Shown here piece by piece: positions 33,725-62,089 of a stretch of 64,000 nucleotides of DNA; position 1 is the first letter of the stretch; the number at the start of each line of letters is the position of its first letter. The position numbers were made by a program, and so were the translations under genes. Origin of the DNA: a virus (taxonomy: Duplodnaviria > Caudoviricetes); IMG/VR virus record IMGVR_UViG_3300046167_000724, one strand, 5' to 3'. The notes beneath the pieces are model-generated. The model was not told where the DNA came from. It worked only from the letters and a program-made list of their open reading frames with translations, and made no database searches.

Positions 33725-36064
33725 ATGAAAAAGATTGAATCATTTAAAAGTTTTTCTCAATTACAAAATCAAATCAGAGAAGAGGCTAGATTAAAAGAAG
33801 TTGCATCTAAAAGAGACGCTACAGTTTCTGAGTTTAACGCTCTTTTACAAAAGTACAATGCGGCATCAGTTGCAGACTTAAACGAAGAAGATAGAGACGC
33901 ATTCATGGCTGAACTTACCAAAGAAGGTAATGCTTTCGGTGCAGCAAGAGCAGAGGCTATTGCAAAGGGTGAAGAAGAGTTTAAGGTTGGCGACGAAGAA
34001 ATGCCGGTTAAGAATGTAGATAAAGAAGACGAAGAAAACGCTGAAGAGTTTGTTAAAGAGTCAACTACAATTATTGAAGAAGGTACTAGAGGTCAATTCG
34101 GTAAAATCTATAAGAATGGCGAAATCGCTTCTGTATACACACACTATGATTCTTATCCTGAGAACATGATTCCACTTATTAAGAAGGGTTATAAAAAAGG
34201 CACTGATGTTGATGCAGTTCTTGGTAAAGGTGGTAATTCAGGTCTAGAAGTTTCTCCAGATAAAATGAAGTTTTATGGCGATGCGGATAGCATGACTCCA
34301 ATGAAAGGTAACATTAAAAATCTTAATAAGTATATTAAAGATGCTGACCGTAATGGTGGTGCAGAGTATATCTACTTATTTGACGAAAGAGATCAAAATT
34401 GGTACATGATTGACATATATGGTGATAAAGAATTAGTACCGGCATTTGAATCAGTAGTTACTGAAGGCAAGCACGACGAGATGCTAGATAAAGTTGCAGA
34501 TGCTGTAAAAAATGCATCAAACTTTATGAACGTTGGTATTGCACTTAAAGATGCAGGTATCAAGTACGATTTTTCAACAGGTATGATGCCAATCTATAGG
34601 TTGAAAAAATACCCTATTGCTATTGTAAATAAAAAGTATGTTGACGATGCAGATAGAGAAGTAGGTGACATTGCAATTGGTGTAATGGAATCACTTACTG
34701 AATCGCTAATCACTGAAGCACTAGAAGGTAGAAGCCAGAAAGAAGCGATGAAAGGTTATGCTGCAATTCATAAGTTTATGATGGCACACCCTGGATTTGC
34801 TAGCAAAACAGTTTCAGACCAAACAGTTGCTTGGACAATGAAAGAAGCTCTTAAGGCTGCACTTATAGACGCAAACTTCCATACAGAAGCTAAGTCAGTT
34901 GGTAAAGCTATTAACTTTGCAAACTTTCAAGCACCAACTGTTTTTGTAAACGAACTGGGCGGTATGCCAATCCAAATCAGTAAAAAAATGATGATGGATA
35001 AAGTATATGAGCTAGCTACAGAAATTACAAGAGGTGCAAAATATAATGGTTTTGCTATTATTGAAGCTGTTGCAATGTTCTTTGATGATTCATTCCCTAA
35101 GAATTCTTCTGCATCAAATCTAAGAGATGTACTTGCTAAATTTATGGGTGAAGCTGTAGAAGCTAATAATCTAGAGCAAAGAATTAATGAAGGTTCAGCG
35201 TTTAATTCGGCAAGACTAAAAGCTATTGCTGACGATAAAGATGAATTTGAATTTGATGGTAAAACTTATCCAGTAAAATCTGTTGATAAGGAAGATGAAG
35301 AACTTGCTGATGATTTAGTAGGTGAAGGTAATGCATTTAGCACTGCTAGGTTAAAGGCTATTGAAGCTGGTGAAAAGGAGTTTGAATTTGATGGTAAGAC
35401 TTATCCAGTAAAGTCAGTTGACAAAGAAGATGAAGAACTTGCTGATGATTTAGTAGGTGAAAGTAACAAAACCATAGATGCTAGCACATTTGGCGATGAC
35501 AAATTACGTTATGATGATCAATTTAGAGGTGCTACTGGTCTTGCTAAAACATTAGCAAGCGAATTAGGATTTGATCCAAAAAAGCCTTGGACTGAAGGTA
35601 TTGGTTTTGATGATATTGAAATGTATGCTATCGGTAAAAAAGAAGGAACTATTTCAAGAAACGCACTATCAGGTAAATATACGTATGCTGATCTTTTAGC
35701 AATGGCTAAAGATTTTTTAGGAATCAATGAATCAGAAGATAAAGAAGCTGCTGATGATGTAGTCGATGAGTCTAGATACGATGATATAAAACTTAAAGAA
35801 TTTGCAGAATTTATCAAAAAAGCTGAAGGTAAAAGAGTTATGCTAACAACAACTGAATTTGATGGTACATCTAAGGTTGAGGGTAGGCTTCAAAAAAGTT
35901 CATCAGGTTATCATAAAATTGATTACATGAGCTTTGATTTTAAAGATGAAATGGATACTATCAAAAAGGGTGACGGCATGATTATGGGTGTTAGGGTTGG
36001 CGAATTCCTTAAGTACAATATCGGTGGTAAAAACGGTTCTCAATTTTTAATTGAAGTACTATAA
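33725..36064 (+). CDS. Acidic modular protein with three 45-aa repeats; putative protease-processed internal head polyprotein
   Basis: CTS-like start 'MKKIESFKSF'; modules bounded by IEE/VTE/ITE/INE; repeats at 33923, 35189 and 35324. Confidence 0.6.
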   Translation: MKKIESFKSFSQLQNQIREEARLKEVASKRDATVSEFNALLQKYNAASVADLNEEDRDAFMAELTKEGNAFGAARAEAIAKGEEEFKVGDEEMPVKNVDKEDEENAEEFVKESTTIIEEGTRGQFGKIYKNGEIASVYTHYDSYPENMIPLIKKGYKKGTDVDAVLGKGGNSGLEVSPDKMKFYGDADSMTPMKGNIKNLNKYIKDADRNGGAEYIYLFDERDQNWYMIDIYGDKELVPAFESVVTEGKHDEMLDKVADAVKNASNFMNVGIALKDAGIKYDFSTGMMPIYRLKKYPIAIVNKKYVDDADREVGDIAIGVMESLTESLITEALEGRSQKEAMKGYAAIHKFMMAHPGFASKTVSDQTVAWTMKEALKAALIDANFHTEAKSVGKAINFANFQAPTVFVNELGGMPIQISKKMMMDKVYELATEITRGAKYNGFAIIEAVAMFFDDSFPKNSSASNLRDVLAKFMGEAVEANNLEQRINEGSAFNSARLKAIADDKDEFEFDGKTYPVKSVDKEDEELADDLVGEGNAFSTARLKAIEAGEKEFEFDGKTYPVKSVDKEDEELADDLVGESNKTIDASTFGDDKLRYDDQFRGATGLAKTLASELGFDPKKPWTEGIGFDDIEMYAIGKKEGTISRNALSGKYTYADLLAMAKDFLGINESEDKEAADDVVDESRYDDIKLKEFAEFIKKAEGKRVMLTTTEFDGTSKVEGRLQKSSSGYHKIDYMSFDFKDEMDTIKKGDGMIMGVRVGEFLKYNIGGKNGSQFLIEVL
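35189..35458 (+). repeat. Tandem 135-bp (45-codon) repeat; a diverged third copy lies at 33923-34057
   Basis: EGSAFNSARLKAIADDKDEFEFDGKTYPVKSVDKEDEELADDLVG / EGNAFSTARLKAIEAGEKEFEFDGKTYPVKSVDKEDEELADDLVG. Confidence 0.95.
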
Positions 36065-36126
36065 AAAAGTTTAAAAAAGTTTGACATATATTTTTTTATG
36101 TCATTCTTTTTTTGTATATTAGAAGT

Positions 36127-36432
36127 ATGAAAAGGGTAAAACTATTCGAAAGCTTTATTAACGAGGCAGGAATCTTTAGAACTTACAATGAGCTTGTTGG
36201 TTATGAATACAAGAAGTTTGTAGATGCTTTTAAGAAGCTCCACCCTGATAATATAGTTACATATGATAAAAAGAATGATGTTGATTATGGTCACCGTAAA
36301 GGCTCCACAGAAGCACTTTGGAAATACTTTCATGATGAAGGTAGAATTCACCACTCTGAAAAAGACAGAGACGTACTTGGTCTAATCAATGCATTTGACA
36401 TGGTTAAAAGAAACCACCCTTGGTCAAAATAA
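36127..36432 (+). CDS. Small protein with CTS-like leader (MKRVKLFESFINE-A)
   Basis: ATG 36127 preferred over the ORF-track start at 36112; the leader ends in INE. Confidence 0.7.
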   Translation: MKRVKLFESFINEAGIFRTYNELVGYEYKKFVDAFKKLHPDNIVTYDKKNDVDYGHRKGSTEALWKYFHDEGRIHHSEKDRDVLGLINAFDMVKRNHPWSK

Positions 36433-36442
36433 AACAAACATT
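36402..36442 (+). repeat. 41-bp direct repeat, copy 1 (end of the upstream gene plus intergenic/start region)
   Basis: ggttaaaagaaaccacccttggtcaaaataaaacaaacatt, identical at 36747-36787. Confidence 0.95.
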
Positions 36443-36445
36443 CAA

Positions 36446-36721
36446 ATGAAAAATATAAAATTATTTAACGAGTTTGCTGAACCAACAACTGACGAGTCTA
36501 TTATAAATTCACAAATTGAAGAGAAAAAAGCAGACGGTACAATCTCTGACGATGAGGATGAGAGAAGAGCTGAATTACTTAAAAGAGTAAAAGAGCAAAT
36601 GGAAGAACTTTTAGCTTCAGCAGAATTCGATGCTAACGATATTGGCGGTTCTTTTAGAGCACCTGGTATTATGGCTAAAATCAGAAAAGAACTAGAAGGT
36701 CAAATTAAAAAGTTTAGATAA
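36446..36721 (+). CDS. Small protein with CTS-like leader (MKNIKLFNEFAE)
   Basis: ATG 36446 preferred over the ORF-track start at 36389; 91 aa; contains IEE. Confidence 0.7.
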   Translation: MKNIKLFNEFAEPTTDESIINSQIEEKKADGTISDDEDERRAELLKRVKEQMEELLASAEFDANDIGGSFRAPGIMAKIRKELEGQIKKFR

Positions 36722-36722
36722 T

Positions 36723-36752
36723 ATGAAGCTTCTTGTTTCTTTTAACGGTTAA
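36723..36752 (+). pseudogene. Relic 5' end of the ligase-fold gene (MKLLVSFNG-stop)
   Basis: aatatgaagcttcttgtttcttttaacg closely matches aatatgaacaagctacttatttcttttaacg at the start of the 37431 gene. Confidence 0.6.
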
Positions 36753-36787
36753 AAGAAACCACCCTTGGTCAAAATAAAACAAACATT
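36747..36787 (+). repeat. 41-bp direct repeat, copy 2
   Basis: Identical to 36402-36442; both copies are followed by (c/t)aaatgaaaaa, which contains the next start codon. Confidence 0.95.
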
Positions 36788-36790
36788 TAA

Positions 36791-37429
36791 ATGAAAAAAG
36801 TAAGATTATACGAAAGCTTCCACGGTATTGATGAAGCTTCAAGAGGTACAATTCACAAAGCAGTAAAAGCTGGTGATTATCCCGTAACTATTGTTGTTAT
36901 TGAAAACGGTAAAGTAGTACACCAAGAAATTGTAGATACACCACAAGCTGTACCCGCATCATTTAACGTTCTTCAGAAAGAATACCCAAAAGCAAAGCTT
37001 CATGTTGAGGACAAAGGCGGTCAAACACTTTTTGTAGAAGGTATTGAATCAGCAATTACAGAGTTTGTAAATGAATCAGACGTAATGAACTCGTATTATT
37101 TTACTAGTCCTAGTGAATTTGGTCAATTTTCATCAGAGGCCCCGGCTAAAGGTGAAACTAAATATTTAGTAATGGCTAATAATAAAGCAGACTTTAATGG
37201 TCAAACTATTAAATTAGAAGGTGGTATTAGAATGGGATCTGCGACTAGCCAAAAGGTTATAGGTGTTTATGGTGATGAGCAGTCTGCAAAAGACGCCTAT
37301 GAAGCTGCAATGAAAAAACCAGAAGGAACTATGGTTTCTTTCACAATGGGAACAGTTGTTGGCGAAACTAAATTTAGATCTCAATATACTGAAATCGAAG
37401 GGTATTTAGCAAAAGTTAAATTAAAATAA
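36791..37429 (+). CDS. Protein with CTS-like leader (MKKVRLYESFHGIDE-A), two modules
   Basis: 212 aa; internal 'ITEFVNE-S' junction. Confidence 0.7.
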   Translation: MKKVRLYESFHGIDEASRGTIHKAVKAGDYPVTIVVIENGKVVHQEIVDTPQAVPASFNVLQKEYPKAKLHVEDKGGQTLFVEGIESAITEFVNESDVMNSYYFTSPSEFGQFSSEAPAKGETKYLVMANNKADFNGQTIKLEGGIRMGSATSQKVIGVYGDEQSAKDAYEAAMKKPEGTMVSFTMGTVVGETKFRSQYTEIEGYLAKVKLK

Positions 37430-37430
37430 T

Positions 37431-38723
37431 ATGAACAAGCTACTTATTTCTTTTAACGAGTTTCTTTTAGAGAAGGCTTATAACTCTTATGATTCAGATC
37501 TAATCCTTGAAGGTGGTGCAGCTGGTCACATGATGCACCCGTTCGATGATAAAGCACTAACGTTTGATGACTTTAGAAAGTTTATCACAGCGGGTCTCCA
37601 AGGTGAAATGACTTTTGATGAAGAGCCAACAGAAAAGACTGACGGCCAAAACGTGTTTGCCACGGTTAAAGATGGTAAAGTAATGTTTGCTAGAAACAAG
37701 GGTCAAATGCAAAACCCTATTGACCTAGCAGGTATTACTCAAATGTTTGCCGACCATCCATCTGAGTTGGTTAGAGACACATTTACATTCGCAGCTCAAG
37801 ACTTAGCGTCAACACTTACAAAGCTGTCAGCTAATGACCAAATTAAGTACTTTAACGACGGTAAGAACTTCATGAACATGGAGCTTATCTATTCAAAAAA
37901 CCCTAACGTTATTAATTACGACAGAGATGTTATTCAATTCCACGGTATCAAAGAGACTGATGGTGAAGGTAATATTATTGGTGATATGGGTGCAAGATCG
38001 GCTAAAGATATTGCTAAGCTACTTGATGCTGTAAATGCAAAAACAGGTAAAGTGTTCAACATTATTCCACCTCAAGTACTTAAGCTTCGTAAAGATGTAG
38101 ACTTTGATGACAGGTTGCCGTACTTTATGAAAAAGATTGATGCGCTTCAAACACAATATAAATTAGCCGGTCATGATGAGGTTTCAAGATACCATGAAAT
38201 GTGGTGGAGAGACGAGATTGAAAAGTCTTTTGGTGACCTATCACAAGATATTAAAGAAGGCTTATTATTAAGATGGGCATATGACGATAAGAAAACTCTT
38301 AACATGAGACAGGTTGCTAAGCAGATTACACCAGAACAAATGGAGTTTCTTAGAAAATACGACAAGGTAGACGTTAAGAAAAAGTACAAAGAAAACATTA
38401 GACCGTTCGAAGACTTGTTCTTAGAGTTTGGTTCAATTGTACTTAAGAACGCTTCGAACTTTGTTGCAGCGTCACCAGATGCCGAAATGCAAAGACTACA
38501 TAATGAAATTAGAACAGAAGCCGCTAAGATTAAAAAAGGTGGTTCAGTAGACCAGATTATTAAGGTTGAAGCTGAGCTGGCAAGGTTAGATAGAATTGGT
38601 GGTATTGAGTCAATTATTCCAACTGAAGGCTTAGTGTTCAAATATAATGGTAAAATATATAAGTTAACGGGTACTTTTGCAGCGATTAATCAGCTGTTAG
38701 GTATTATTAAATACGGTAGATAA
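37431..38723 (+). CDS. ATP-dependent ligase/capping-enzyme-fold nucleotidyltransferase (RNA ligase-like) with CTS-like leader
   Basis: Motif I EKTDG, Ia ARNKG, III MNMELIY, IIIa IQFHGI, IV EGLVF, V YKLTG; leader 'MNKLLISFNEFLLE...ILE-GG'. Confidence 0.65.
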   Translation: MNKLLISFNEFLLEKAYNSYDSDLILEGGAAGHMMHPFDDKALTFDDFRKFITAGLQGEMTFDEEPTEKTDGQNVFATVKDGKVMFARNKGQMQNPIDLAGITQMFADHPSELVRDTFTFAAQDLASTLTKLSANDQIKYFNDGKNFMNMELIYSKNPNVINYDRDVIQFHGIKETDGEGNIIGDMGARSAKDIAKLLDAVNAKTGKVFNIIPPQVLKLRKDVDFDDRLPYFMKKIDALQTQYKLAGHDEVSRYHEMWWRDEIEKSFGDLSQDIKEGLLLRWAYDDKKTLNMRQVAKQITPEQMEFLRKYDKVDVKKKYKENIRPFEDLFLEFGSIVLKNASNFVAASPDAEMQRLHNEIRTEAAKIKKGGSVDQIIKVEAELARLDRIGGIESIIPTEGLVFKYNGKIYKLTGTFAAINQLLGIIKYGR

Positions 38724-38729
38724 ACTAAT

Positions 38730-40568
38730 ATGGCACTTCAAAAGCTAAGAGATTATTTTAAAGAAACACCAAGAGAACAGTTTATGCAACTATTAAACCA
38801 AAAGGTTCATGTTGTAGAAAAACTAGCGGCTTCAGCATTTCATGTAAAGTCTGGTGATTTAAAAAATAATTATTATAAATCAGGACAAACTCAACCTATT
38901 GATATTATTGATAGAACGATTGTAGGTTTTTACGAACCTGCAATTTTGCATTTTAAAGGTTTGTCTAATGAAATTAAAGAAGAGATGCCAAAAGATTGGA
39001 AGTTTGGTTTTGATTATTTAATTGATGGTGAAACACCTAACTTTGAATATTCGCTACTTCCAAAAAACAATTTAGTACTTACACATATTCAAGTGCTAAA
39101 TCCACTAACAGAAAATGTTAAGAAAGTCATTAGAGATACTCAAGTACTTAATAAGTGGGCTGATAAACTAGAGGTTCAAAGACCCCCAGTTGTATTTGAA
39201 GGTCAATTAAGATTTGATCAGAAAGAATCTTTAATTAAACTTCTTGAAATGACAGACCGTGAATTTACAACAACATATGAGTCTCGTTCATTTACAAAAG
39301 ATTTATTTAACATATTTGATACAAACGTTAGAAACTCAACACTTCAAGAAGGTTTAGATACCGATATTGACGGTCTTATAATTTCTTTTGTAGATGGTAA
39401 AAAAATGACGCCATTTAAAATTGAAGATTTTAGAAGAGTTAATGAATCAAATACAGAAAGAAAGTCATCCGATATTTACCAGATTACAATTGTTGATTTA
39501 ATTGAGTATTTATCAAATTATGATTTTAAAAAGCATAGTTTAATTAAAGAGAAAAAAGACCGTAGATTTTTAGAGCTTATGTCTGAAGTATTTAATTCTT
39601 ATATTAAAGAACACGCTACTAAATTTATTGGGGTTAACTTTGAAACCGCTGATTTTGCAAAAAAAGATGCGTTTAAGTTAAACACTGAATTTATTGAAAA
39701 TCAACAAACTCTTAAACTTATCGATAATAAAATTTTAAGTGAACTTTTTAAAATTACATTAAGCTCATTTAGAAGAGAAAGAACAAAAACTACAGATATT
39801 TTGTCTGAAGATATGGTTAATCAAATGAATGAGATTGTTAAATCTATTGACGACCACGTATCTGCAAAAATAGAAGAAGGTGATGTGTTAGATTTTAATA
39901 CTTATAAAAAGATGGATACAATTAATTCATCAATGAATGAAGCCCTTAAAGTAGATTATCCAGAACAAGGCAATAAACTTGTTAATATGTTTGTTGGTAG
40001 ATTCCAACCATTTACATTAGGTCATGCTAAAGTTGTTAAAGCAATTCACCAACAAAACGGTTATCCAGTTGTAATCTTATTAGTTAAGTCTAAGACGAAA
40101 AAGAAAGAAGATGCTTTCAAACGTCCTTATGATGAAGACACTCAATTAGATATGCTTAACAAACTTAAGAGAGAACTTCCAATTGAAGACGTATTTATTA
40201 TACCGACGGGTGGTATTGATACAATGTTTAATGCAATGAGACCCAAGTACGAGCCGGTTTTATGGGGTACGGGTTCTGATAGAATGAAAACATATGGCTT
40301 CCAGGTTAATAATGATCAATATAGAGAAGACTTAGGAGTTAGAGATGATTTTAAACTTTTTGAAATTCCAAGAACTGGTAAAAACATTTCAGCTACTCAA
40401 GTTAGGAATGCTATGTTAGACGGTGACGTGAAGCTATTTAAAAAATTAACGCCAAGGGGTATTCATGGAATGTATGACGAATTAAAGTCAAGACTTGAAG
40501 CTTCTATGGCAGTTGCTGAGAATGTTGAAACTATTTTAACATTTGAACAATTTATTTCTAATATATAA
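38730..40568 (+). CDS. Divergent ligase-fold domain fused to a HIGH-superfamily (NMNAT/cytidyltransferase-like) nucleotidyltransferase
   Basis: C-terminal 'FVGRFQPFTLGH', 'GSDR', 'ISATQVR'; N-terminal 'EKLAA', 'PPVVFEG', 'DGLII', 'FKIED'; ends in CTS-like 'ILTFEQFISNI'. Confidence 0.7.
   Translation: MALQKLRDYFKETPREQFMQLLNQKVHVVEKLAASAFHVKSGDLKNNYYKSGQTQPIDIIDRTIVGFYEPAILHFKGLSNEIKEEMPKDWKFGFDYLIDGETPNFEYSLLPKNNLVLTHIQVLNPLTENVKKVIRDTQVLNKWADKLEVQRPPVVFEGQLRFDQKESLIKLLEMTDREFTTTYESRSFTKDLFNIFDTNVRNSTLQEGLDTDIDGLIISFVDGKKMTPFKIEDFRRVNESNTERKSSDIYQITIVDLIEYLSNYDFKKHSLIKEKKDRRFLELMSEVFNSYIKEHATKFIGVNFETADFAKKDAFKLNTEFIENQQTLKLIDNKILSELFKITLSSFRRERTKTTDILSEDMVNQMNEIVKSIDDHVSAKIEEGDVLDFNTYKKMDTINSSMNEALKVDYPEQGNKLVNMFVGRFQPFTLGHAKVVKAIHQQNGYPVVILLVKSKTKKKEDAFKRPYDEDTQLDMLNKLKRELPIEDVFIIPTGGIDTMFNAMRPKYEPVLWGTGSDRMKTYGFQVNNDQYREDLGVRDDFKLFEIPRTGKNISATQVRNAMLDGDVKLFKKLTPRGIHGMYDELKSRLEASMAVAENVETILTFEQFISNI
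40560..40567 (+). promoter_or_regulatory. Putative late promoter variant AATATATA
   Basis: At the gene boundary upstream of ATG 40589. Confidence 0.4.
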
Positions 40569-40588
40569 TAAAATACAATTATAGTAAG

Positions 40589-43114
40589 ATGTTTGAATCT
40601 TTTAACAATTTTATAAATAACAGCATGCCTTTAAACGAAGGTATGTTTTCATTTAAAACTTTAGGTGATAATAAAGCAATTAGCGCAATGTCAGGTGCTG
40701 ATATTTACATGTTTGACGATAAAGGAAACAAATGGCATGAAGAAGACTATGAAGGTTACGGCCTCTTTGGTGGTAAAGACTTTTTTGAGTTAATGGCTGA
40801 AATGAATGGTGAAACAGGTAGAGATGCAGGTATTGACCTTTATTTCGGTAATGATAAAAAAGTTTTGTACCCGGCATTAACAAGAGACAAAAATTTTAAC
40901 TGGAAAAGACACAAGTTTACTACTAAAATAAAGTCAGACCCTAAGCAAGGTGCTTTCTCTGAATCAGTGATTAATGAGGCTAAATCAATCGCTAAGATTC
41001 AAAAAGAATGGGCTAAAGTTACAGCTATGATGAAAGATACAGTCGCATCATATAAAGAAGCTGAAGGTAAAGACAAAGAAGATTTATTAGACCAGCTTAA
41101 AGTTTTAACAATTTCTAAAAAGAAACTTGAGGTTGAATTAGATGATGCAGTCGGTATTAAAGACATGGACGTTGAACTAGCAGAATCTTCAGTTATTACA
41201 GAGTCACTTAAACCACGTGATATTAAAGTGGGTAGAGGATTTAAAATCGGCGATGACATTTTTAAAATTATTGAAATTAAAAAAGACAAACGTTTTGGTG
41301 ATATCGCAAATACAGAACGTATTGACCATATATCCGGTAAAAAATACACTTATAGAGATACGGTTAAAGACCTTGTAGATTTCTTTAATGAGGAGGGTGC
41401 GGTTGCAGAAGGTATGGAATTTACTATTACTGATGTAATTAATGAGTCATTAAACAAAAGACACGTTACACTAAAAAGAAAATATACTGAAAATTATCCA
41501 GCGATTACTGCAGGTAAATCAGCAAGAATCAGAAATAAAATGCTTGAGGCGATTGCTGACGGTAAAATTACACAAGAAGAATTCGACACTATCTTAAAAG
41601 AAATGTCAATAGATACTAAGAGATGGTCAAAAAGAAATACAAAATATTTTAACGTATCAGAAGACGGTGTGTCACTTTCTAAGTTTGGTAGAAGAATCCT
41701 TAATCAAATTACAATTAATGAAGCAGAGTCTATGATTAATGAAAAAAGAGAGAACTGGATTGTTTATACGGGCGAAGTTCAAAAGAAATTTTATTCAGAA
41801 CACACAGGTAGAAAGTCTGCTGAAAAAATGGTAAATATGGCTATGAGAGTTTTGAATCAAGTAGGTATGATGCCAAAAAGTTTGTGGGAAAAAGAAGAAG
41901 AAGAAGGTTTTGTTGTAGAAGACACTGTATTCATATATGAATCATTTAAAGTTTTTGAAGCTAATAGTGTTAACGAATCAGCGTTTGTAGTATGGTATGA
42001 AGATAAAGAGGGCAAGCACATTTTAGGCACGTTCCATAATAAGAGAGCTGCTGACAAGTACAAGAAAGAAGAAGAAGACGAGGTGCTTAACACTGTAGGT
42101 GTTGAAAGCATTGGTACTATGTCTAGGAAGATGTGGGATAAAAACGAAGCACCTTACATCAAAGAGTCAATTGACCTTAACGAAGCATTTGCTTCTTCTA
42201 AGCTGAGAAACCTTTTAACAATGAGAGGTGCTGATGGTAGCGCTATTAAAAATTTAGCTAGAGCTTTTTACGGTTTAACTAAATACAAATTAGACGAACT
42301 GCCAGATGCTGCATTAAGAGATGTTGACCCTAAAACAGCATACAAGTCGTATCAAAAAGATAATGAATTTGCGGTATTCTATATTGTAGATAATGAAAAA
42401 GGAAACCCATATGGTGATAGAGGCTGGGGTCGTAAAATTGAACCAGGTATTATCGCAATCACAAGAGGTAAAGAATTCTTAGGTGCAACACACGATACTA
42501 AAAAAACACCTTCAACACTTACGACAGCTGCATTAGACAGCGCTGTTGGTGGTGATAAAAGATATTCAGGTTACGGTGCTACAGGCATTTACAATGTAAA
42601 GAGAGCTGCTGAGCTTGCAGATAGAGCTATCGTTGTATGGCTAAATAACGACGCATTCAAATCAACTGATAAGATTGAGCAAAGAGCAGACGCTAAAGCA
42701 GGTGCAATCGCGTTCACGTCAGATAAAGAATTTAAGGCAACTAACATGGCTAGATATAAAGAAATTTTAGCATCAAACGCAGCAAAGCTTCCACTAGACA
42801 AAATAGTTGAATCAGCTATCGAAGAGCTAACTAAGCAAATTGCACAAGCACTTAAAGACAATAACGCCAGCAAATATGATGGTATCCTTATCGGCACGAG
42901 CCCTAGAGGTCGTGAAGTAACTATTAAGGATGCTGGTCAGCACATGTCAAATATCCTTGACGATTACTCAAGATATTCATCTTACATGAAAAATTCAGAT
43001 GAAGAAAGAGCTAGCGGTTACTCTTCAGGTTTCTACGAAAAAGAAGCAAAGAATTACGCTAAGAGAGTAACTGACGGAGCTAAGAAAATTAAAAAGATGG
43101 ATTACGCTTGGTAA
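40589..43114 (+). CDS. Multi-module protein; putative protease-processed internal head polyprotein
   Basis: Leader 'MFESFNNFINNSMPLNE-G'; modules separated by INE, ITE, VAE, VVE, VNE and LNE sites. Confidence 0.6.
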   Translation: MFESFNNFINNSMPLNEGMFSFKTLGDNKAISAMSGADIYMFDDKGNKWHEEDYEGYGLFGGKDFFELMAEMNGETGRDAGIDLYFGNDKKVLYPALTRDKNFNWKRHKFTTKIKSDPKQGAFSESVINEAKSIAKIQKEWAKVTAMMKDTVASYKEAEGKDKEDLLDQLKVLTISKKKLEVELDDAVGIKDMDVELAESSVITESLKPRDIKVGRGFKIGDDIFKIIEIKKDKRFGDIANTERIDHISGKKYTYRDTVKDLVDFFNEEGAVAEGMEFTITDVINESLNKRHVTLKRKYTENYPAITAGKSARIRNKMLEAIADGKITQEEFDTILKEMSIDTKRWSKRNTKYFNVSEDGVSLSKFGRRILNQITINEAESMINEKRENWIVYTGEVQKKFYSEHTGRKSAEKMVNMAMRVLNQVGMMPKSLWEKEEEEGFVVEDTVFIYESFKVFEANSVNESAFVVWYEDKEGKHILGTFHNKRAADKYKKEEEDEVLNTVGVESIGTMSRKMWDKNEAPYIKESIDLNEAFASSKLRNLLTMRGADGSAIKNLARAFYGLTKYKLDELPDAALRDVDPKTAYKSYQKDNEFAVFYIVDNEKGNPYGDRGWGRKIEPGIIAITRGKEFLGATHDTKKTPSTLTTAALDSAVGGDKRYSGYGATGIYNVKRAAELADRAIVVWLNNDAFKSTDKIEQRADAKAGAIAFTSDKEFKATNMARYKEILASNAAKLPLDKIVESAIEELTKQIAQALKDNNASKYDGILIGTSPRGREVTIKDAGQHMSNILDDYSRYSSYMKNSDEERASGYSSGFYEKEAKNYAKRVTDGAKKIKKMDYAW

Positions 43115-43126
43115 TCAAATTTAATT

Positions 43127-43813
43127 ATGCCATCACAAAGTAAATCACAACAAAGACTAATGGGAGTAGCATACGCAGTTAAATCTGGTGATATGCAACT
43201 TTCTGATGTAGATGCTTCTTATAAAGATAAGGTTAAAGAGCTTGTTGATAGCATGTCTCTTAAAGACCTTAAAGACTTTGCTGAGACGGATCACAGTGGT
43301 TTACCAGAAGAAGTAACTGAGGGTGTTATGAAAATTGACTTACGTAAAATTTTAACTAGGCTTTCAGGCGCTATTGGCTATAAGCATGACCCTAAGATGC
43401 GTCAAGAATTATTATCAGCATTTGAAGAAGACCTTAAAGAAATTATGGCTAAACACAATTATATTGTTGAATATGAAACAATCGAAGAAGATTTATCAGC
43501 TACTACACCAGGTAATCTCGGTGGTATGGGTGATGTTTCTCTACCCAATGGAGATGCCGTCGGTTCAGGCGATGTCCCAGCAGGTTCTGGTAAAGCTAAA
43601 AAGAAAAAGAAGCTTAAAAACATTGAAGATTTTTTACAAGAACAAGAACAATTAAAATCATTTAAACCTGAACAGGGTAAAGGTGAAGCACTTGGTGAAG
43701 GTGAATATGAAAACGGTTCTGCAGTTTCTCCAGAACAAGAAATGGAACAACGTGCTAACGCACATAGAGTTGCAAAAAATGTAATAACATTTGACGCATT
43801 TTCAAAAAGATAA
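43127..43813 (+). CDS. DUF3008-like N-terminal domain protein with acidic, E-site-rich tail
   Basis: 'PSQSKSQQRLMGVAYAVKSG...SMSLKDLKDFAETDHSGLP' matches my recollection of DUF3008; ends 'VITFDAFSKR'. Confidence 0.55.
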   Translation: MPSQSKSQQRLMGVAYAVKSGDMQLSDVDASYKDKVKELVDSMSLKDLKDFAETDHSGLPEEVTEGVMKIDLRKILTRLSGAIGYKHDPKMRQELLSAFEEDLKEIMAKHNYIVEYETIEEDLSATTPGNLGGMGDVSLPNGDAVGSGDVPAGSGKAKKKKKLKNIEDFLQEQEQLKSFKPEQGKGEALGEGEYENGSAVSPEQEMEQRANAHRVAKNVITFDAFSKR

Positions 43814-45904: not shown

Positions 45905-46372
45905 ATGGCAAATATAGATAATCAATGTAAAGACCTAGAAGTAACAGACTTCTATGGCGAATCAAAAACGCATTTGGCAGACATCATGTCTCATCAAAAA
46001 GAAATGCAAGAAAAAACTTATGGTGTTAACTTTGAAAACATGACAATTCGCGAAGTCATGAATTTCTGGCACATGAACACACACGCAGTCATTGATGAAA
46101 TTCACGAGATGACAGATGCATTGGGTGGTATCAATGATGGTTCCGGTAATGCAGTTTGGAAGCCTTGGAAGAAAGACCACACTATATATGATACTATGAA
46201 GGTTTCTGATTTATCAGAAGGTGACCTTAAGGAGTTGTATATGGAATGGGTTGATATCCTACACTTCTTTATGAACTACGCTGCGTCAATCGGACTCGAT
46301 GCACAAACGGCATATAATTACTACTTTGCAAAAGCTGAAGAGAATAAGAACCGTCAAAAGCGTGGATACTAA
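45905..46372 (+). CDS. Dimeric all-alpha dUTPase/dCTPase (MazG-like, gp56-type)
   Basis: 'DEIHEMTDAL', 'WKPWK', 'ELYMEWVDILHF', 'KAEENKNRQKRGY'. Confidence 0.85.
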   Translation: MANIDNQCKDLEVTDFYGESKTHLADIMSHQKEMQEKTYGVNFENMTIREVMNFWHMNTHAVIDEIHEMTDALGGINDGSGNAVWKPWKKDHTIYDTMKVSDLSEGDLKELYMEWVDILHFFMNYAASIGLDAQTAYNYYFAKAEENKNRQKRGY

Positions 46373-47775
46373 TGCTATTAGATGTAGAGCAAAAAGATAA
46401 AGAAATTATCGTTTCATATTACGATACAGAAGGTCAAGTAAAGTTTCGTCGTTATCCGATTGAGCAATACAAAAACTGGTATATTACAGATGAAAACGAT
46501 AGATATAAACACGATTCTTTAAGAAACTGGGACGGTCGCCCCGTTAAAGAAGGTAGAGCTAGGCAGTACAGTAAATTTTCATTGATTTCATTTTTAGATA
46601 ATTTACCGGATAATGATAAGAAGATTATCTTTGAACCTACAATGCCAAAAACATACTTTGTCGATATTGAAACTGAGATTGTTGATGGTTTCCCAAAACC
46701 AGAAGAAGCTAAAACTAGAATCTTATCATTTTCAATTATCACACCAGAACGTAAAGCGATTGTACTGGGTTTAGAAGATATGGCACCTGATAAAATTCAG
46801 AAGATTCAAGACGATACAAACAATTACTTTAAGACTCTTGATTCTGATTGGACTTTTGATTACCGTAAGTTTGATTCTGAATATGATATGGTTTTTACAT
46901 TTATCAATAGGTTTTTGCCTAAGTTTCCGATGATGACAGGTTGGAACTTTATTAATTATGACTGGCAGTATATTGTAAACCGTTGTAAGCGTCTTCAGAT
47001 TGATATTACAGCAGCTGCAAAAACTAAAGCTCTTGACCGTGTAGATTCACGGCCGTTGCATATGGGTATTCTTGATTACATGCAATTGTATGACAAATAC
47101 GACCGTAGTGTTAAAGTAAAGGAGTCTAACGCACTCGACTATGTATCTGGACAAGTACTTAACTTGAATAAGATAAAGTATACAGGTGGCTTACAAGACT
47201 TGTATGAACAAGATTTTGTTAAGTATATTTACTACAATGTTGTCGATTCAGTTTTAGTTTATTATATTGATCAAAAGCTAAAGTCAATGGAAGTTCTTTT
47301 GACCCTAGCATCTATCACAAAAATGCCATTATATAAAGCTGCATCACCAGTATCAGTTACCGAAGCTTTGATTGCACGTAAGCTTGCTGAAGAAAACAAA
47401 TGCGTTGCAACTGAAAAGAAAGAGGACAGCTTTAAAGATGGTAAGTACGCTGGTGCTTATGTGAAACAGCCTAAAGTTGGGTATTATCAAGGTGTAAGTG
47501 CATTTGACTTTGCATCACTATATCCATCTATTATGCGTCAGTTTAATATTTCACCAGATGCATATAAAGATATTATTCCAGTATCACAGATACCTGAACG
47601 CCGTAAAAACAAAGATGAAATTGTTTGTGCAAATGGTGTTGTTTATGATAAAAAAGATTCTATCTTAAAGCAAATCTTAACCGACCTTTACGGACAACGT
47701 AAAGATTACAAGAAGACGTCTTATGAGTATTACTCAAAGGCAAAAGAGATCAAGGACAGATTAGCTAAATTATAA
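46372..47775 (+). CDS. gp43: Family-B DNA polymerase, N-terminal subunit (3'-5' exonuclease plus palm motif A)
   Basis: Exo 'VDIETE', 'GWNFINYDWQY', 'YNVVDS'; motif A 'AFDFASLYPSIM'; ends in the first fingers helix without motifs B or C. Confidence 0.9.
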   Translation: MLLDVEQKDKEIIVSYYDTEGQVKFRRYPIEQYKNWYITDENDRYKHDSLRNWDGRPVKEGRARQYSKFSLISFLDNLPDNDKKIIFEPTMPKTYFVDIETEIVDGFPKPEEAKTRILSFSIITPERKAIVLGLEDMAPDKIQKIQDDTNNYFKTLDSDWTFDYRKFDSEYDMVFTFINRFLPKFPMMTGWNFINYDWQYIVNRCKRLQIDITAAAKTKALDRVDSRPLHMGILDYMQLYDKYDRSVKVKESNALDYVSGQVLNLNKIKYTGGLQDLYEQDFVKYIYYNVVDSVLVYYIDQKLKSMEVLLTLASITKMPLYKAASPVSVTEALIARKLAEENKCVATEKKEDSFKDGKYAGAYVKQPKVGYYQGVSAFDFASLYPSIMRQFNISPDAYKDIIPVSQIPERRKNKDEIVCANGVVYDKKDSILKQILTDLYGQRKDYKKTSYEYYSKAKEIKDRLAKL

Positions 47776-51321: not shown

Positions 51322-52071
51322 ATGAAACTTCAAATTAACCGTATTGACCAGAATAGTTTGGTTGAGTTTGTTAACAAACTTAAAACAATCGACACGTTCT
51401 TGTACTTCAAATTACGTAATGGTAAAGTAACATCCGCTGTTTACTTACCACAAAGAGATGCAGTGAAATTGCACACAGCTCCAATTTCAGATTTGTTTTC
51501 AATCTCAGAAGCTTTACCAGAAGGTAAAGAACTTAAAGTAGCTTTCTTTGATGCAACTAAAGTATTAGATGCAATTAAGATGTTCCAGTCTGACCAGATT
51601 CAGGGTGAGATGGAATTTCAAGAAAACGAAGAAGACTTTGTATGTACATCACTTAAACTGTACAATGAAGAACTTGAAATTACATTAGCGTGTTCAGACC
51701 CATCATTAGGTTTTAAAGACCTTACAGATGCACAGCTTGAAACTATTTTTGACCGTGAAGGTACAGACTTTGATTTTGTACTAGATACGTTTACATTAGG
51801 TAAAATCCGTTCACTATTCTCTCTTGACAAAGAAGAAACATTTTCAATCACTGCTTCAAACGAAGAAGTACGCGTTCAAGGTAAAACTTATAATTACCAA
51901 GCTAATCAAGCATTTAATGGTAAGGCTTCAGAGGCTACACTTTATAAGAAGTATCTTAACCTACTAGACCGTGAAGAATACAGTGTTTATGTTTCTCGCA
52001 ATAAAGTAGTTATGAAGTCTAATGACTCAGAGACACTACTAACAATTGCTACTTGTCAAACAGCGGGATAA
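51322..52071 (+). CDS. gp45: Putative sliding clamp, gp45-like
   Basis: 249 aa, two-domain beta/alpha pattern with central 'ACSDPSL'; translationally coupled to the polymerase C-terminal gene. Confidence 0.55.
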   Translation: MKLQINRIDQNSLVEFVNKLKTIDTFLYFKLRNGKVTSAVYLPQRDAVKLHTAPISDLFSISEALPEGKELKVAFFDATKVLDAIKMFQSDQIQGEMEFQENEEDFVCTSLKLYNEELEITLACSDPSLGFKDLTDAQLETIFDREGTDFDFVLDTFTLGKIRSLFSLDKEETFSITASNEEVRVQGKTYNYQANQAFNGKASEATLYKKYLNLLDREEYSVYVSRNKVVMKSNDSETLLTIATCQTAG

Positions 52072-53288
52072 TGACATTAGAAGAGTTACAGAACACCCCG
52101 GTCGACTCACTCGGTAAAGAAGATTTGCAACGCTTGGCAGCTCACTATGATCAGTTAGCTGCCAAGTTCACTGCATATGAGCAAGCGGTAAAAGTTACAC
52201 TAAACTCTATCTACGGTGCCTTTGGTAATAAGTGGTTTCACTTCTTCAATATTGATATTGCTGAATCAATCACGCTACAAAGTCAGAATGCAATTTTATA
52301 TTCTGAGCAAATTTTAAATAAGTATGTTCAGGAGTTTTGGCATAAGGATACACAAGTTCACGAAGAACTTGGTGTTACTAAAGTTAAAAGTCCATGTAAT
52401 GAACCGTCAGTTATTTATATTGACACAGATTCTTGTTATGTACAGTTTGATGAATTGTACAATACTGTTGTTTGGGAAGATGAAGCAAACAAACCAGACA
52501 TTGATACATTTATTTTAGCGCTATACGACAAGCGACTAAAGCTATACATAGAGAAATGTATGCAAAAGTATGCTGACGCAACTAACACAGATAACTTCCT
52601 TGTTTTTGAACTTGAATCAGTTGCATATGGTGGTATTTGGATGTCTAAGAAGAAATACATTCAAGATATTGCATGGGATGATAAACTTCCAACAACTGAA
52701 AGACATACACCATTAAGTAAAGTTAAGACAATTGGTTTTGATACCATTCAATCATCAACACCAACATTTGCTCGTAAAAAATTAGCAGAAGCCCTTAAGG
52801 TTTTATTTACAGAACCTTCTGGTCCAACAGCTGAAACACTTGAGAAGTTAGTTAAGTTTTTGAAAGAGTCTAAAAAAGAATTTAAGTTAGCACCACTTGA
52901 TGATATATCTTTTAACAGACGTACAAACAACTTAGAAAAATACATCATTGACGATACGGTTGAATTTCAGTTTGGTATGAAGTGTCCACCTAACGTAAAA
53001 GCTGCAGGTTATTACAACTTTACACTAAACAATAATTCAAAGTACAAATCAAAGTACAAGATGATTGGTAATGGTGAAAAGCTTAAGATTTATAACTCAA
53101 TTGATAAAAACGGTTTATGTGATATCTTCGCATACCTTCCAGGTTCACACCCTTATGAGATTGCACCGCCGGTTGATTACGAAACACAATTTGAGAAATG
53201 TATTATTGACCCATTGAATAGGGTATTAGTCGCAGTTGGTCTTCATACCATCAACCGTAACCTAATTTATTCAACATCTTTATTTTAG
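52071..53288 (+). CDS. gp43: Family-B DNA polymerase, C-terminal subunit (fingers/palm/thumb)
   Basis: Motif B 'KVTLNSIYG', motif C 'YIDTDS', 'KKKY'. ATG 52071 (TAATG overlap) preferred over the ORF-track start at 52053. Confidence 0.9.
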   Translation: MTLEELQNTPVDSLGKEDLQRLAAHYDQLAAKFTAYEQAVKVTLNSIYGAFGNKWFHFFNIDIAESITLQSQNAILYSEQILNKYVQEFWHKDTQVHEELGVTKVKSPCNEPSVIYIDTDSCYVQFDELYNTVVWEDEANKPDIDTFILALYDKRLKLYIEKCMQKYADATNTDNFLVFELESVAYGGIWMSKKKYIQDIAWDDKLPTTERHTPLSKVKTIGFDTIQSSTPTFARKKLAEALKVLFTEPSGPTAETLEKLVKFLKESKKEFKLAPLDDISFNRRTNNLEKYIIDDTVEFQFGMKCPPNVKAAGYYNFTLNNNSKYKSKYKMIGNGEKLKIYNSIDKNGLCDIFAYLPGSHPYEIAPPVDYETQFEKCIIDPLNRVLVAVGLHTINRNLIYSTSLF

Positions 53289-61067: not shown

Positions 61068-61832
61068 ATGAATCTTTCACCAGTTAAAATTATTAACGAA
61101 AACGAAATTGAATTTTACCTACATGGTAAATCATTCACTGTAAACACTACTGAAAATACTGTAGTTGAAAACGAAACTATTTCAAAAGAACTTCACACAT
61201 TAGCATGGGCTGTTGAAAACTTCCAGTTCATTGAAGATAAAATTGTATGGCATAAAGGTATACACAAAATGTGGTACAATATTACTGAAGCGAAATTCTA
61301 TATGGGTAATACTGAAGTTTTAGATGAAGGTTTTGTTAACTTCATTATGGCTGCTGGTATTATTAGATACAATGAAAAGCCAGTTGCTGAAGCATTTGTA
61401 TATGCTGCAAATAATGCTGAATCATTTGTTAATTTAGACTTTGTTAAAACAGTTAATGAAAATGGTAACCTAATTGATGTTATGAAGTTTGGCGAAAACA
61501 TTTATATTTCTAGAATTAATGAAGCTGCTAAAATCTATAATTTCTTTAAGGCAAACACTGCAAATGCTGCAGTTGAGTATGTTAATGAAAAGACTAATGT
61601 AAACATCACTGAATTTGTTGCTGAATTAGTTGAAGGCGAATTAACTGAATATGTTGATGCACTTGATGAAATTGCAAAGAAGCAAGAAATCATTACATTC
61701 TTAAAAGATCAAAGAAACAGATTAGCTGAAGCTGATAAATCAATTGAAGAAATCAATGCAGCAGACGCACTTATTGAAAGTGAGATTGCTAAATTTGAAA
61801 CTGAAATTAAAGAATTAAAAGCTACGCTATAA
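61068..61832 (+). CDS. Hypothetical protein with C-terminal coiled coil (late-expressed)
   Basis: 254 aa, acidic, preceded by the late motif. Confidence 0.55.
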   Translation: MNLSPVKIINENEIEFYLHGKSFTVNTTENTVVENETISKELHTLAWAVENFQFIEDKIVWHKGIHKMWYNITEAKFYMGNTEVLDEGFVNFIMAAGIIRYNEKPVAEAFVYAANNAESFVNLDFVKTVNENGNLIDVMKFGENIYISRINEAAKIYNFFKANTANAAVEYVNEKTNVNITEFVAELVEGELTEYVDALDEIAKKQEIITFLKDQRNRLAEADKSIEEINAADALIESEIAKFETEIKELKATL

Positions 61833-62089
61833 TGCAATCTAAATTTATTAAAACATTTGAGCAATTTGTAATAAACGAAGAAGAAATCTCAAGATCAACT
61901 GGTTATGTACCGGGTTCTTTGAAAAAAGAATTTGAAAATTTACCAGCGGGTACTAAAGTATCTATTGACGCTTTGAATTATTCTCAATCTGCAAACGATG
62001 ACCTTGTTATTTGTTTTACCGACTCTAACGAAAATATGTTAAGAGTCCCTAAATCAAAACTAGTGCTGGAGGACGGCGAAGGCATTTAA
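61832..62089 (+). CDS. Small protein with CTS-like leader (MQSKFIKTFEQFVINE-E)
   Basis: 85 aa; shares the leader motif of the 33.7-43.8 kb cluster. Confidence 0.65.
   Translation: MQSKFIKTFEQFVINEEEISRSTGYVPGSLKKEFENLPAGTKVSIDALNYSQSANDDLVICFTDSNENMLRVPKSKLVLEDGEGI

Follow-up and report, generated by a model that had tools for sequence, protein, structure and literature searches.

The internal proteins IPI–III and Alt of bacteriophage T4 carry a capsid targeting sequence (CTS) and are processed by the prohead protease gp21. The T4 CTS has the sequence MKTYQEFIAE (PMC8442874). Its residues 4 and 7 are responsible for targeting and residues 8 and 10 direct processing, gp21 cleaves after L/I-x-E, and Alt is also processed at its C-terminus (PMC9026906). 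Among ATP-dependent RNA ligases, the described families include Rnl5 (Naegleria NgrRnl, Deinococcus DraRnl), Rnl1 (T4 Rnl1, fungal Trl1-LIG) and Rnl2 (T4 Rnl2, trypanosome REL1), and RNA repair systems of the heal-and-seal type are exemplified by T4 Pnk with Rnl1, bacterial Pnkp/Hen1 and the fungal ligase-kinase-CPD protein Trl1. The HIGH nucleotidyltransferases (PF01467) include the archaeal nicotinamide mononucleotide (NMN) adenylyltransferase NMNAT/NadM, PPAT and NadD. To our knowledge, neither RNA-ligase-fold nor HIGH enzymes have been described as head cargo. Here we describe two adjacent genes, hereafter g1 and g2, from a 64,000-nucleotide stretch of DNA (hereafter the window; one strand) of the virus record IMGVR_UViG_3300046167_000724 in IMG/VR. 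Their products combine two modules with RNA-ligase folds and one HIGH nucleotidyltransferase, and each product has a terminal peptide patterned like the T4 CTS. The best explanation we can offer, about which our confidence is evenly balanced, is that g1 and g2 encode a capsid-addressed set acting on RNA ends after injection. The set is assembled from known kinds of parts, namely RNA ligases, HIGH enzymes and T4 internal-protein targeting; the combination is unusual and widely distributed.

A preliminary description of the window, made from its letters, had reported two open reading frames (ORFs) on the plus strand, 37431–38723 (430 aa) and 38730–40568 (612 aa), separated by 6 nt, and had assigned the ligase fold to both. 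The frames are as described, all motifs quoted there (EKTDG, ARNKG, MELIY, QFHGI, EGLVF and YKL in g1; EKLAA, PPVVFEG, DGLII, FKIED, RFQPFTLGH and ISATQVR in g2) are present in the translations, and the fold was recovered by Foldseek, structural alignment and ESM Atlas comparison. The assignment of folds to the modules is nearly certain. The features of g1 are as follows (a slash marks a putative cut; pLDDT, predicted local distance difference test).

37431–38723, plus strand: g1, a 430-aa lysine-nucleotidyltransferase with an RNA-ligase fold, from a large unannotated phage family
37431–37472, plus strand: N-terminal leader, aa 1–14 (MNKLLISFNEFLLE), a tag resembling the T4 CTS, with an L-x-E cut site at its end; conserved pattern, CTS spacing, pLDDT below 50
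37473–37511, plus strand: variable linker, aa 15–27, ending in ILE/GG (possible second cut site); low pLDDT at residues 12–31, sequence variable among homologues
37512–38102, plus strand: first part of the nucleotidyltransferase domain, with GGxxGHxxHPFDD and motifs I (K69), Ia (R88), III (E151) and IIIa (F170-H171); from alignment conservation and structural alignment to ligase adenylyltransferase domains
37635–37637, plus strand: codon of K69, the predicted nucleotidyl-accepting lysine, invariant in EKxDG
38103–38600, plus strand: all-helical insertion, aa 225–390, between motifs IIIa and IV; from the secondary structure of the model, skipped by ligase alignments
38601–38720, plus strand: second part of the nucleotidyltransferase domain, with motif IV (E399-G400) and motif V (K408, K411); from alignment conservation and structural alignment

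The full set of ligase motifs (I, Ia, III, IIIa, IV, V) is present in g1 in the proper order and is conserved beyond chance. Five residues, K69, D71, G72, R88 and K411, do not vary in 42 relatives sharing 31–80% identity, and seven more (E68, N149, E151, F170, H171, E399, G400) are conserved to 90% or more. AlphaFold gave a confident model of g1 (pLDDT 90; predicted template modelling score 0.85). Foldseek E-values are weak (3e-3 at best), yet the top 29 matches are all polynucleotide ligases, the ligase structural alignment covering 188 residues over the model range 25–423; capping enzymes are not among the structural matches. The nearest neighbours by shape in ESM Atlas are all phage proteins (template modelling (TM) score 0.84–0.89), several of them named cytidyltransferase-like or carrying PF01467, and the more distant ones are annotated as DUF6267, RNA_ligase or RNA_lig_T4_1. 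By its KxDG motif I, motif order and adenylyltransferase-domain fold, g1 belongs to the superfamily of ligases and capping enzymes.

At the level of sequence, g1 has no match in Pfam, PHROGs, NCBIfam or PDB sequences, and a PDB profile search returned no ligase; sub-threshold matches to PF09414 (RNA_ligase) were obtained for 3 of the 42 relatives (E about 0.003). Neither g1 nor g2 shows significant sequence similarity to the Rnl1, Rnl2 and Rnl5 ligases listed above. The PF09414/PF09511 domain and the accessory domain that characterize the named families Rnl1, Rnl2, Rnl3 and Rnl5 were not found in g1; instead of the accessory domains that Rnl1, Rnl2 and Rnl5 have at the N- or C-terminus, it has an internal helical domain of 165 aa between motifs IIIa and IV. 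The family itself is large: one search returned 1145 relatives of near length, and an exhaustive one, 1840 clusters at 50% identity. Another difference from the described ligases is the conserved element GGxxGHxxHPFDD (residues 26–40, window 37506–37550), which is family-specific and located upstream of motif I. It is preceded by [LI]-x-E even where the g1 module is internal to proteins of 600–2000 aa. This element may bind a leaving group or a metal, or may be a protease site freeing the g1 module from a polyprotein.

The second gene has the following features.

38730–40568, plus strand: g2, 612 aa, an Rnl2-fold module fused to a HIGH nucleotidyltransferase; 421 homologues, most of them with PF01467
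38730–39434, plus strand: N-domain, aa 1–235, ligase-type nucleotidyltransferase fold with an atypical motif I, E30-K31-[IL]-x-A-S; from Foldseek, BFVD and column counts
38820–38822, plus strand: codon of K31, candidate catalytic lysine of the N-domain; K in 39 of 40 homologues, after the invariant E30
39462–39935, plus strand: helical domain, aa 245–402, positioned like the C-terminal domain of Rnl2; from secondary structure and a Foldseek alignment covering full-length Rnl2
39975–40517, plus strand: HIGH/ISxTxxR nucleotidyltransferase domain, aa 416–596 (PF01467)
40518–40565, plus strand: C-terminal linker with x-x-E cut sites (VAE/N, NVE/T) followed by the tag LTFEQFISNI; conserved, pLDDT below 50 for residues 597–607

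The g2 model has pLDDT 82. Its first 400 residues match full-length T4 Rnl2 in Foldseek (2hvr, E 3.9e-8), as well as the Rnl2 adenylyltransferase domain (1s68) and Trl1, and many phage and giant-virus RNA ligases are found among the BFVD matches of the N-terminal part. Residues 1–402 have the two-domain Rnl2 fold. No Pfam ligase matches g2, and the profile of residues 1–245 found no ligase in PDB. Five residues (E30, K50, S51, H119, K230) never vary; K31 and D95 are retained in 39 of 40 homologues, and K224 in 38. Motif I is E30-K31-[IL]-x-A34-S35, in place of KxDG or KxHG of the described RNA ligases, and the acid of motif IV, D214, is retained by just 33 of the 40. Equivalence of K31 and K35 of Rnl2 is suggested by strand position only. 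The module is under selection, and since K31, K224, K230 and D95 are kept, it may be active. Stand-alone homologues of the g2 N-domain (446–453 aa, E about 1e-57) are encoded by megaphages of 636–735 kb (LR756501, LR756502 and LR756504; loci L094–L096); they have no HIGH domain, no g1 neighbour and no C-terminal tag.

The HIGH nucleotidyltransferase noted in the preliminary description is intact. PF01467 matches residues 420–560 with 35.5 bits at a cut-off of 21, the motifs GRFQPFTLGH and ISATxVR are invariant in every homologue having this domain, and residues 416–596 have a Rossmann-like fold, so that the assignment to the HIGH superfamily holds. Equivalog models of NMNAT score far below their cut-offs (TIGR01527, 28.3 vs 181.2 bits; NF002243, 29.8 vs 127). 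In a low-identity alignment, indicative only, an arginine of g2 occupies the position that we take to be W87, the nicotinamide-stacking tryptophan of the NMNAT from M. thermoautotrophicum. Because of the wide failure of all equivalog models and of this arginine, we do not file the domain as an NMNAT. It further differs from NMNAT/NadM, PPAT and NadD by its fusion to a ligase-fold module, and no NadV partner was seen in five partial relatives.

The three modules are linked in several ways. Among 80 related IMG/VR loci, g2 directly follows g1 in 74 of the 75 that have enough downstream DNA, and this order is kept even though the N-terminal part of g2 has diverged to 36–50% identity across these loci; the same order is observed in the 462-kb phage LR756500 at 32–34% identity. 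Co-occurrence of the pair in other phages, which was anticipated in the preliminary description, is supported by these loci. The HIGH domain and the g1 module reside in one chain in at least 56 of 149 diverse g1 representatives, and Pfam detects the HIGH domain in 33 of 70 N-terminal extensions of g1-type proteins. Both modules form a single 915-aa protein in LR756508, a g1-type protein of the Microcystis phage Mel-JY01 is annotated as 'cytidylyltransferase like', and where g2 is short, the HIGH domain is encoded by a stand-alone gene between g1 and the g2 N-terminal module. The HIGH domain thus moves, being found in g2, as a gene of its own or within g1-type proteins. It is very probable that the three modules are functionally coupled.

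The g2 N-domain had been called a diverged copy of g1. The shared fold stands, but no sequence relationship was found by BLASTP or hhalign (probability 0.3), so this wording was too strong. As the g2 N-domain profile matched none of the 149 g1-family representatives, no such module is hidden in the long fusion proteins. The heteromeric enzyme proposed in the preliminary description gained no support; complex prediction for g1 (residues 28–430) and g2 (residues 1–597) yielded an interaction prediction score from aligned errors (ipSAE) of 0.00, a value that counts neither for nor against binding.

The terminal peptides of both proteins are conserved. In about 120 close homologues the g1 leader follows the pattern M-K-x-L-x-[ST]-[FY]-x-[EDQ]-F-[LIV]-x-E-[KR], whereas other positions vary. 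The spacing of F8-x-x-F11-L12-x-E14 is identical to that of the T4 CTS (aromatic-x-x-aromatic-aliphatic-x-Glu), and, as in IPI–III and Alt, the leader is about ten residues long and has its two aromatics three positions apart, with aliphatic-x-Glu and a cut site after them. In g2 the N-terminus is structurally fixed and invariant, and the tag, [LM]TF[EDN]xF[IL]xxx, is C-terminal instead. All full-length homologues listed keep it, even those of 426 aa that lack the HIGH domain, and E-[SGNT] sites invariably stand before it. In one related locus (L099) each separate component has a tag of its own: g1, the stand-alone HIGH enzyme (MKYIKLFETFINE/A), a 293-aa protein, the g2 N-terminal module and the downstream polyprotein. 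A gp21-type prohead protease (Peptidase_S77, PF03420) scores above the cut-off in all five related IMG/VR records, which are partial relatives, 41–76% complete.

For a tag pattern defined post hoc, 10 tagged protein termini were found in the window vs 1.04 expected, most of them within the block 33725–43813. As with the T4 internal proteins, unrelated proteins sharing the tag alone are clustered, a T4-type prohead protease is present in relatives, and for C-terminal processing there is the precedent of Alt; the differences are that one of the tags is C-terminal and that the cargo would consist of RNA-ligase-fold and HIGH enzymes. Conservation in homologues, the T4 spacing, the protease and a tagged virion enzyme considered below all favour the capsid-address reading of these motifs given in the preliminary description, and packaging of g1 and g2 as capsid cargo is probable. 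The tag is an addition specific to this clade: of 141 diverse g1 relatives, just 5 carry it.

Several observations concern the block itself. Nearly every protein encoded there starts or ends with the F-x-x-F tag: 33725, 36127, 36446, 36791, g1, g2, 40589 and 43127 (the latter at the C-terminus). One tag is located outside the block, in a small ORF at 61832–62089 (MQSKFIKTFEQFVINE). A repeat of approximately 47 bp (41–47 bp, comprising the end of gene 36127 and the leader region) is found at 36400–36450 and 36745–36795, preceding genes 36446 and 36791, and a nine-codon relic, MKLLVSFNG-stop, at 36723–36752 after gene 36446, copies the start of g1. The repeat and the relic look like traces of cassette insertion via recombination between repeats. 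In the relative G005 (locus L089, 17899–21375), a 337-residue frame combines a CTS-like leader, MKYIKLFEDFV, with a small domain, a VVE/S linker and a P-loop kinase (GGPGSGKS; AAA_33, E 3.7e-10); it is possibly a capsid-addressed polynucleotide kinase.

A parallel is provided by cyanophages. The cytidyltransferase of S-SZBM1 (S-SZBM1_140) starts with the CTS-like sequence MRFRQFIIE/A and, together with its downstream neighbour (_139), was detected by liquid chromatography–mass spectrometry in CsCl-purified virions, being the sole enzyme detected (PMC9146016). In cyanomyoviruses the gene order is gp41, MazG, two unknown genes, DUF6267 and the cytidyltransferase (S-SZBM1, OL473597, 78988–82670, locus L103; phage Syn1, locus L101). 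DUF6267 (PF19782, cyanomyovirus 'T4-GC 71') resembles g1: it is restricted to phages, has a length of about 400 aa, carries KWDG as motif I, GDL, and EGYV...IKF near the C-terminus, as read by eye, and is directly followed by a HIGH nucleotidyltransferase gene. In ESM Atlas the similarity of shape amounts to TM 0.64/0.76 over 322 aa, and the feature score is 0.97. Unlike g1, it has no CTS-like leader. Alignment of the g1 family with DUF6267 by hhalign gave no significant match (probability 0.45), and PF19782 has no match in the five relatives of this phage. The link between g1 and DUF6267 rests on Atlas structure and features and on the motifs seen by eye; by these, DUF6267 looks like an unrecognised member of the ligase superfamily.

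The partners of g1-type modules point to the substrate. As in heal-and-seal systems, the g1 family joins a ligase module to a P-loop kinase, a 2H phosphoesterase or a CCA-adding enzyme. A 1205-aa protein (P0328) contains the HIGH domain, a PolyA_pol domain of the CCA type and the g1 module; another (P0247), consisting of a P-loop kinase and the g1 module, adjoins a complete CCA-adding enzyme gene on a T4-like contig with a T4 portal gene. Zeta/AAA_33 P-loop kinases occur in 5 of the 70 N-terminal extensions, and a 2H phosphoesterase in one. Unlike in the heal-and-seal systems, HIGH nucleotidyltransferases, which no described RNA repair pathway includes, are the most frequent partner, the window has no kinase or phosphatase gene, and the enzymes would arrive pre-made rather than be expressed after infection. 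RNA ligases rank above DNA ligases in the structural matches of both g1 and g2. Given the CCA-adding enzyme, P-loop kinase and 2H phosphoesterase partners, RNA ends, above all those of tRNA, are the indicated substrate, and we somewhat favour RNA over other substrates. The link to RNA repair proposed in the preliminary description is thus retained. Its suggestions of an activated nucleotide conjugate or of NAD regeneration gain no such support: the domain scores far below the NMNAT cut-offs, and neither NadV (NAPRTase) nor KptA was found in the five partial relatives. NAD-dependent DNA ligase and PF09414 gave no match there either; these negative results are weak, as the records are incomplete.

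Under the preferred explanation, the three enzyme modules (g1, the N-terminal part of g2 and the HIGH domain of g2) would constitute one functional set encoded by two genes, each polypeptide carrying a removable address peptide of the T4 CTS pattern, N-terminal in g1 and C-terminal in g2. The two proteins would attach to the scaffolding core of the prohead, a protease of the T4 gp21 type would cut them at [LIV]-x-E sites, and the trimmed proteins would be retained in the filled head and enter the cell together with the DNA. There, most likely, they would heal and seal broken RNA, mainly tRNA cleaved by host anticodon nucleases, from the very start of infection. In such a scheme g1 would be the canonical sealing enzyme, and the HIGH domain would, as an auxiliary step, transfer a nucleotidyl group to a phosphate-bearing substrate, either an RNA end or NMN, the latter yielding NAD+. 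The folds, motif conservation, synteny, domain mobility and tag conservation come from the present analysis, and the T4 CTS rules and the presence of the tagged cyanophage HIGH enzyme in virions from the work of others, whereas we infer the packaging of g1 and g2, RNA as a substrate and any catalysis. A more far-reaching version, tentative and on balance doubtful, is that marine T4-like phages share an undescribed pathway in which the HIGH enzyme performs a new chemistry on nucleic-acid ends, such as ATP-dependent adenylylation of an RNA phosphate end, together with unclassified RNA ligases (g1, DUF6267), and that in this clade the whole kit is packed and injected, countering tRNA-cleaving defences before phage gene expression.

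A number of observations weigh against a packaged RNA-repair set. The P value of the tag excess is optimistic, because the pattern was defined after it had been seen. The DUF6267 protein is absent from the S-SZBM1 virion list, and the virion detection in that phage rests on two peptides (PMC9146016). The g2 N-domain may not be a ligase, as motif I lacks its D/H-G and the motif IV acid is inconstant. A classical Rnl1, with a small P-loop kinase close by, is encoded in at least one relative, and a CCA-adding enzyme in another, none of them clearly tagged; with such enzymes of their own in relatives, the g1/g2 set would be an addition, and extra repair is not obviously needed. The window contains no tRNA genes, and no role of a HIGH enzyme in RNA repair was found described in the accessible literature. 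If the proteins are not cargo, the terminal peptides could serve another purpose, such as docking onto an assembly in the cytoplasm, or be a by-product of cassette shuffling, the enzymes acting intracellularly in the replication and nucleotide-metabolism region. This is compatible with the location of g1 and g2 between the helicase and thymidylate synthase genes, amid replication genes, with cassette recombination in the block as indicated by the repeat and the relic g1 start, and with the lack of the tag in most g1 relatives. Nevertheless we consider it unlikely: the tag is conserved as protein while codons and non-motif positions vary, it is moved to the C-terminus where the N-terminus is structurally fixed, with the cut site then on its N-terminal side, its spacing matches the experimentally mapped T4 CTS exactly, a T4-type protease is present, and a tagged homologous enzyme has been detected in virions.

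The remaining alternatives concern the reaction. The HIGH domain might be a true NMN adenylyltransferase rebuilding NAD+ on entry, with the ligase modules secondary; such a supply module would counter NAD-depleting defences or feed an NAD-consuming step (2'-phosphate removal, NAD-dependent ligase). With the equivalog scores and the missing partners described above, we regard it as quite unlikely. Still less probable is a function at DNA ends, with the ligase-fold proteins acting on the phage genome after injection or as a replicative ligase (nick sealing, end joining, adenylylation of DNA 5'-ends). RNA ligases outrank DNA ligases for both proteins, and fusion or adjacency with CCA-adding enzymes indicates tRNA. 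The candidacy of g1 as the missing replicative DNA ligase was set aside because an ATP-dependent DNA ligase of the conventional kind (PF01068, E 4e-20) is encoded by G002, the most complete relative. Equally improbable is the nucleotide conjugation suggested in the preliminary description, in which the HIGH domain would make an activated NMP-X compound and a ligase-fold module would use it not for repair but to modify RNA, DNA or protein with a cap-like group or tag, the g2 N-domain perhaps being a non-catalytic adaptor. The persistent and widespread coupling of HIGH and ligase-fold modules, which has no known rationale, the atypical motif I of g2 and the family-specific GGxxGHxxHPFDD upstream of motif I in g1 are in its favour; the full classical ligase motif set of g1 and the lack of capping enzymes among the structural matches oppose it.

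If the assignment of g1 is correct, the RNA ligase superfamily gains a branch that is very large, phage-specific and as yet unannotated. The recurrent link between ligase-fold and HIGH modules, by fusion or adjacency, extends to the 'cytidyltransferase' of cultured cyanomyoviruses, so far treated as a cell-wall or metabolic auxiliary gene, so that a gene widespread in marine phages is given a function open to testing. Head cargo of the RNA-repair type, if real, would widen the idea of T4 internal proteins, which covers inhibitors and an ADP-ribosyltransferase, to nucleic-acid repair at time zero. A cleavable C-terminal capsid address, if confirmed, would also be useful for packaging proteins into engineered T4-type particles.

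The window reads as that of a T4-like myovirus, and the source phage is an uncultured marine T4-like giant phage. The window has a G+C content of about 33% and encodes a baseplate wedge protein, a gp32-type single-stranded DNA-binding protein, a primase, a helicase, a thymidylate synthase, a split family-B DNA polymerase and a ribonucleotide reductase. In the protein collection a 231,566-bp contig carries g1, part of the window. Among phage records, those closest to it are of uncultured huge phages (LR756500, with a helicase at 56% identity) and of Lak megaphages. Occurrences of the T4 late promoter TATAAATA in the window are not enriched (16 found vs 13.8 expected), and none is located upstream of g1 or g2. 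On a phage-like metagenome contig with the protein P0246 (locus L097), a small NUDIX gene lies no more than 200 nt downstream of a stand-alone g1-type gene, with a gene for ribosomal protein S21 farther along. The family-B DNA polymerase is encoded by two genes of the window, 46372–47775 and the one ending at 53288 (52053–53288), which by PHROG matches lie 4.3 kb apart with the ribonucleotide reductase genes between them.

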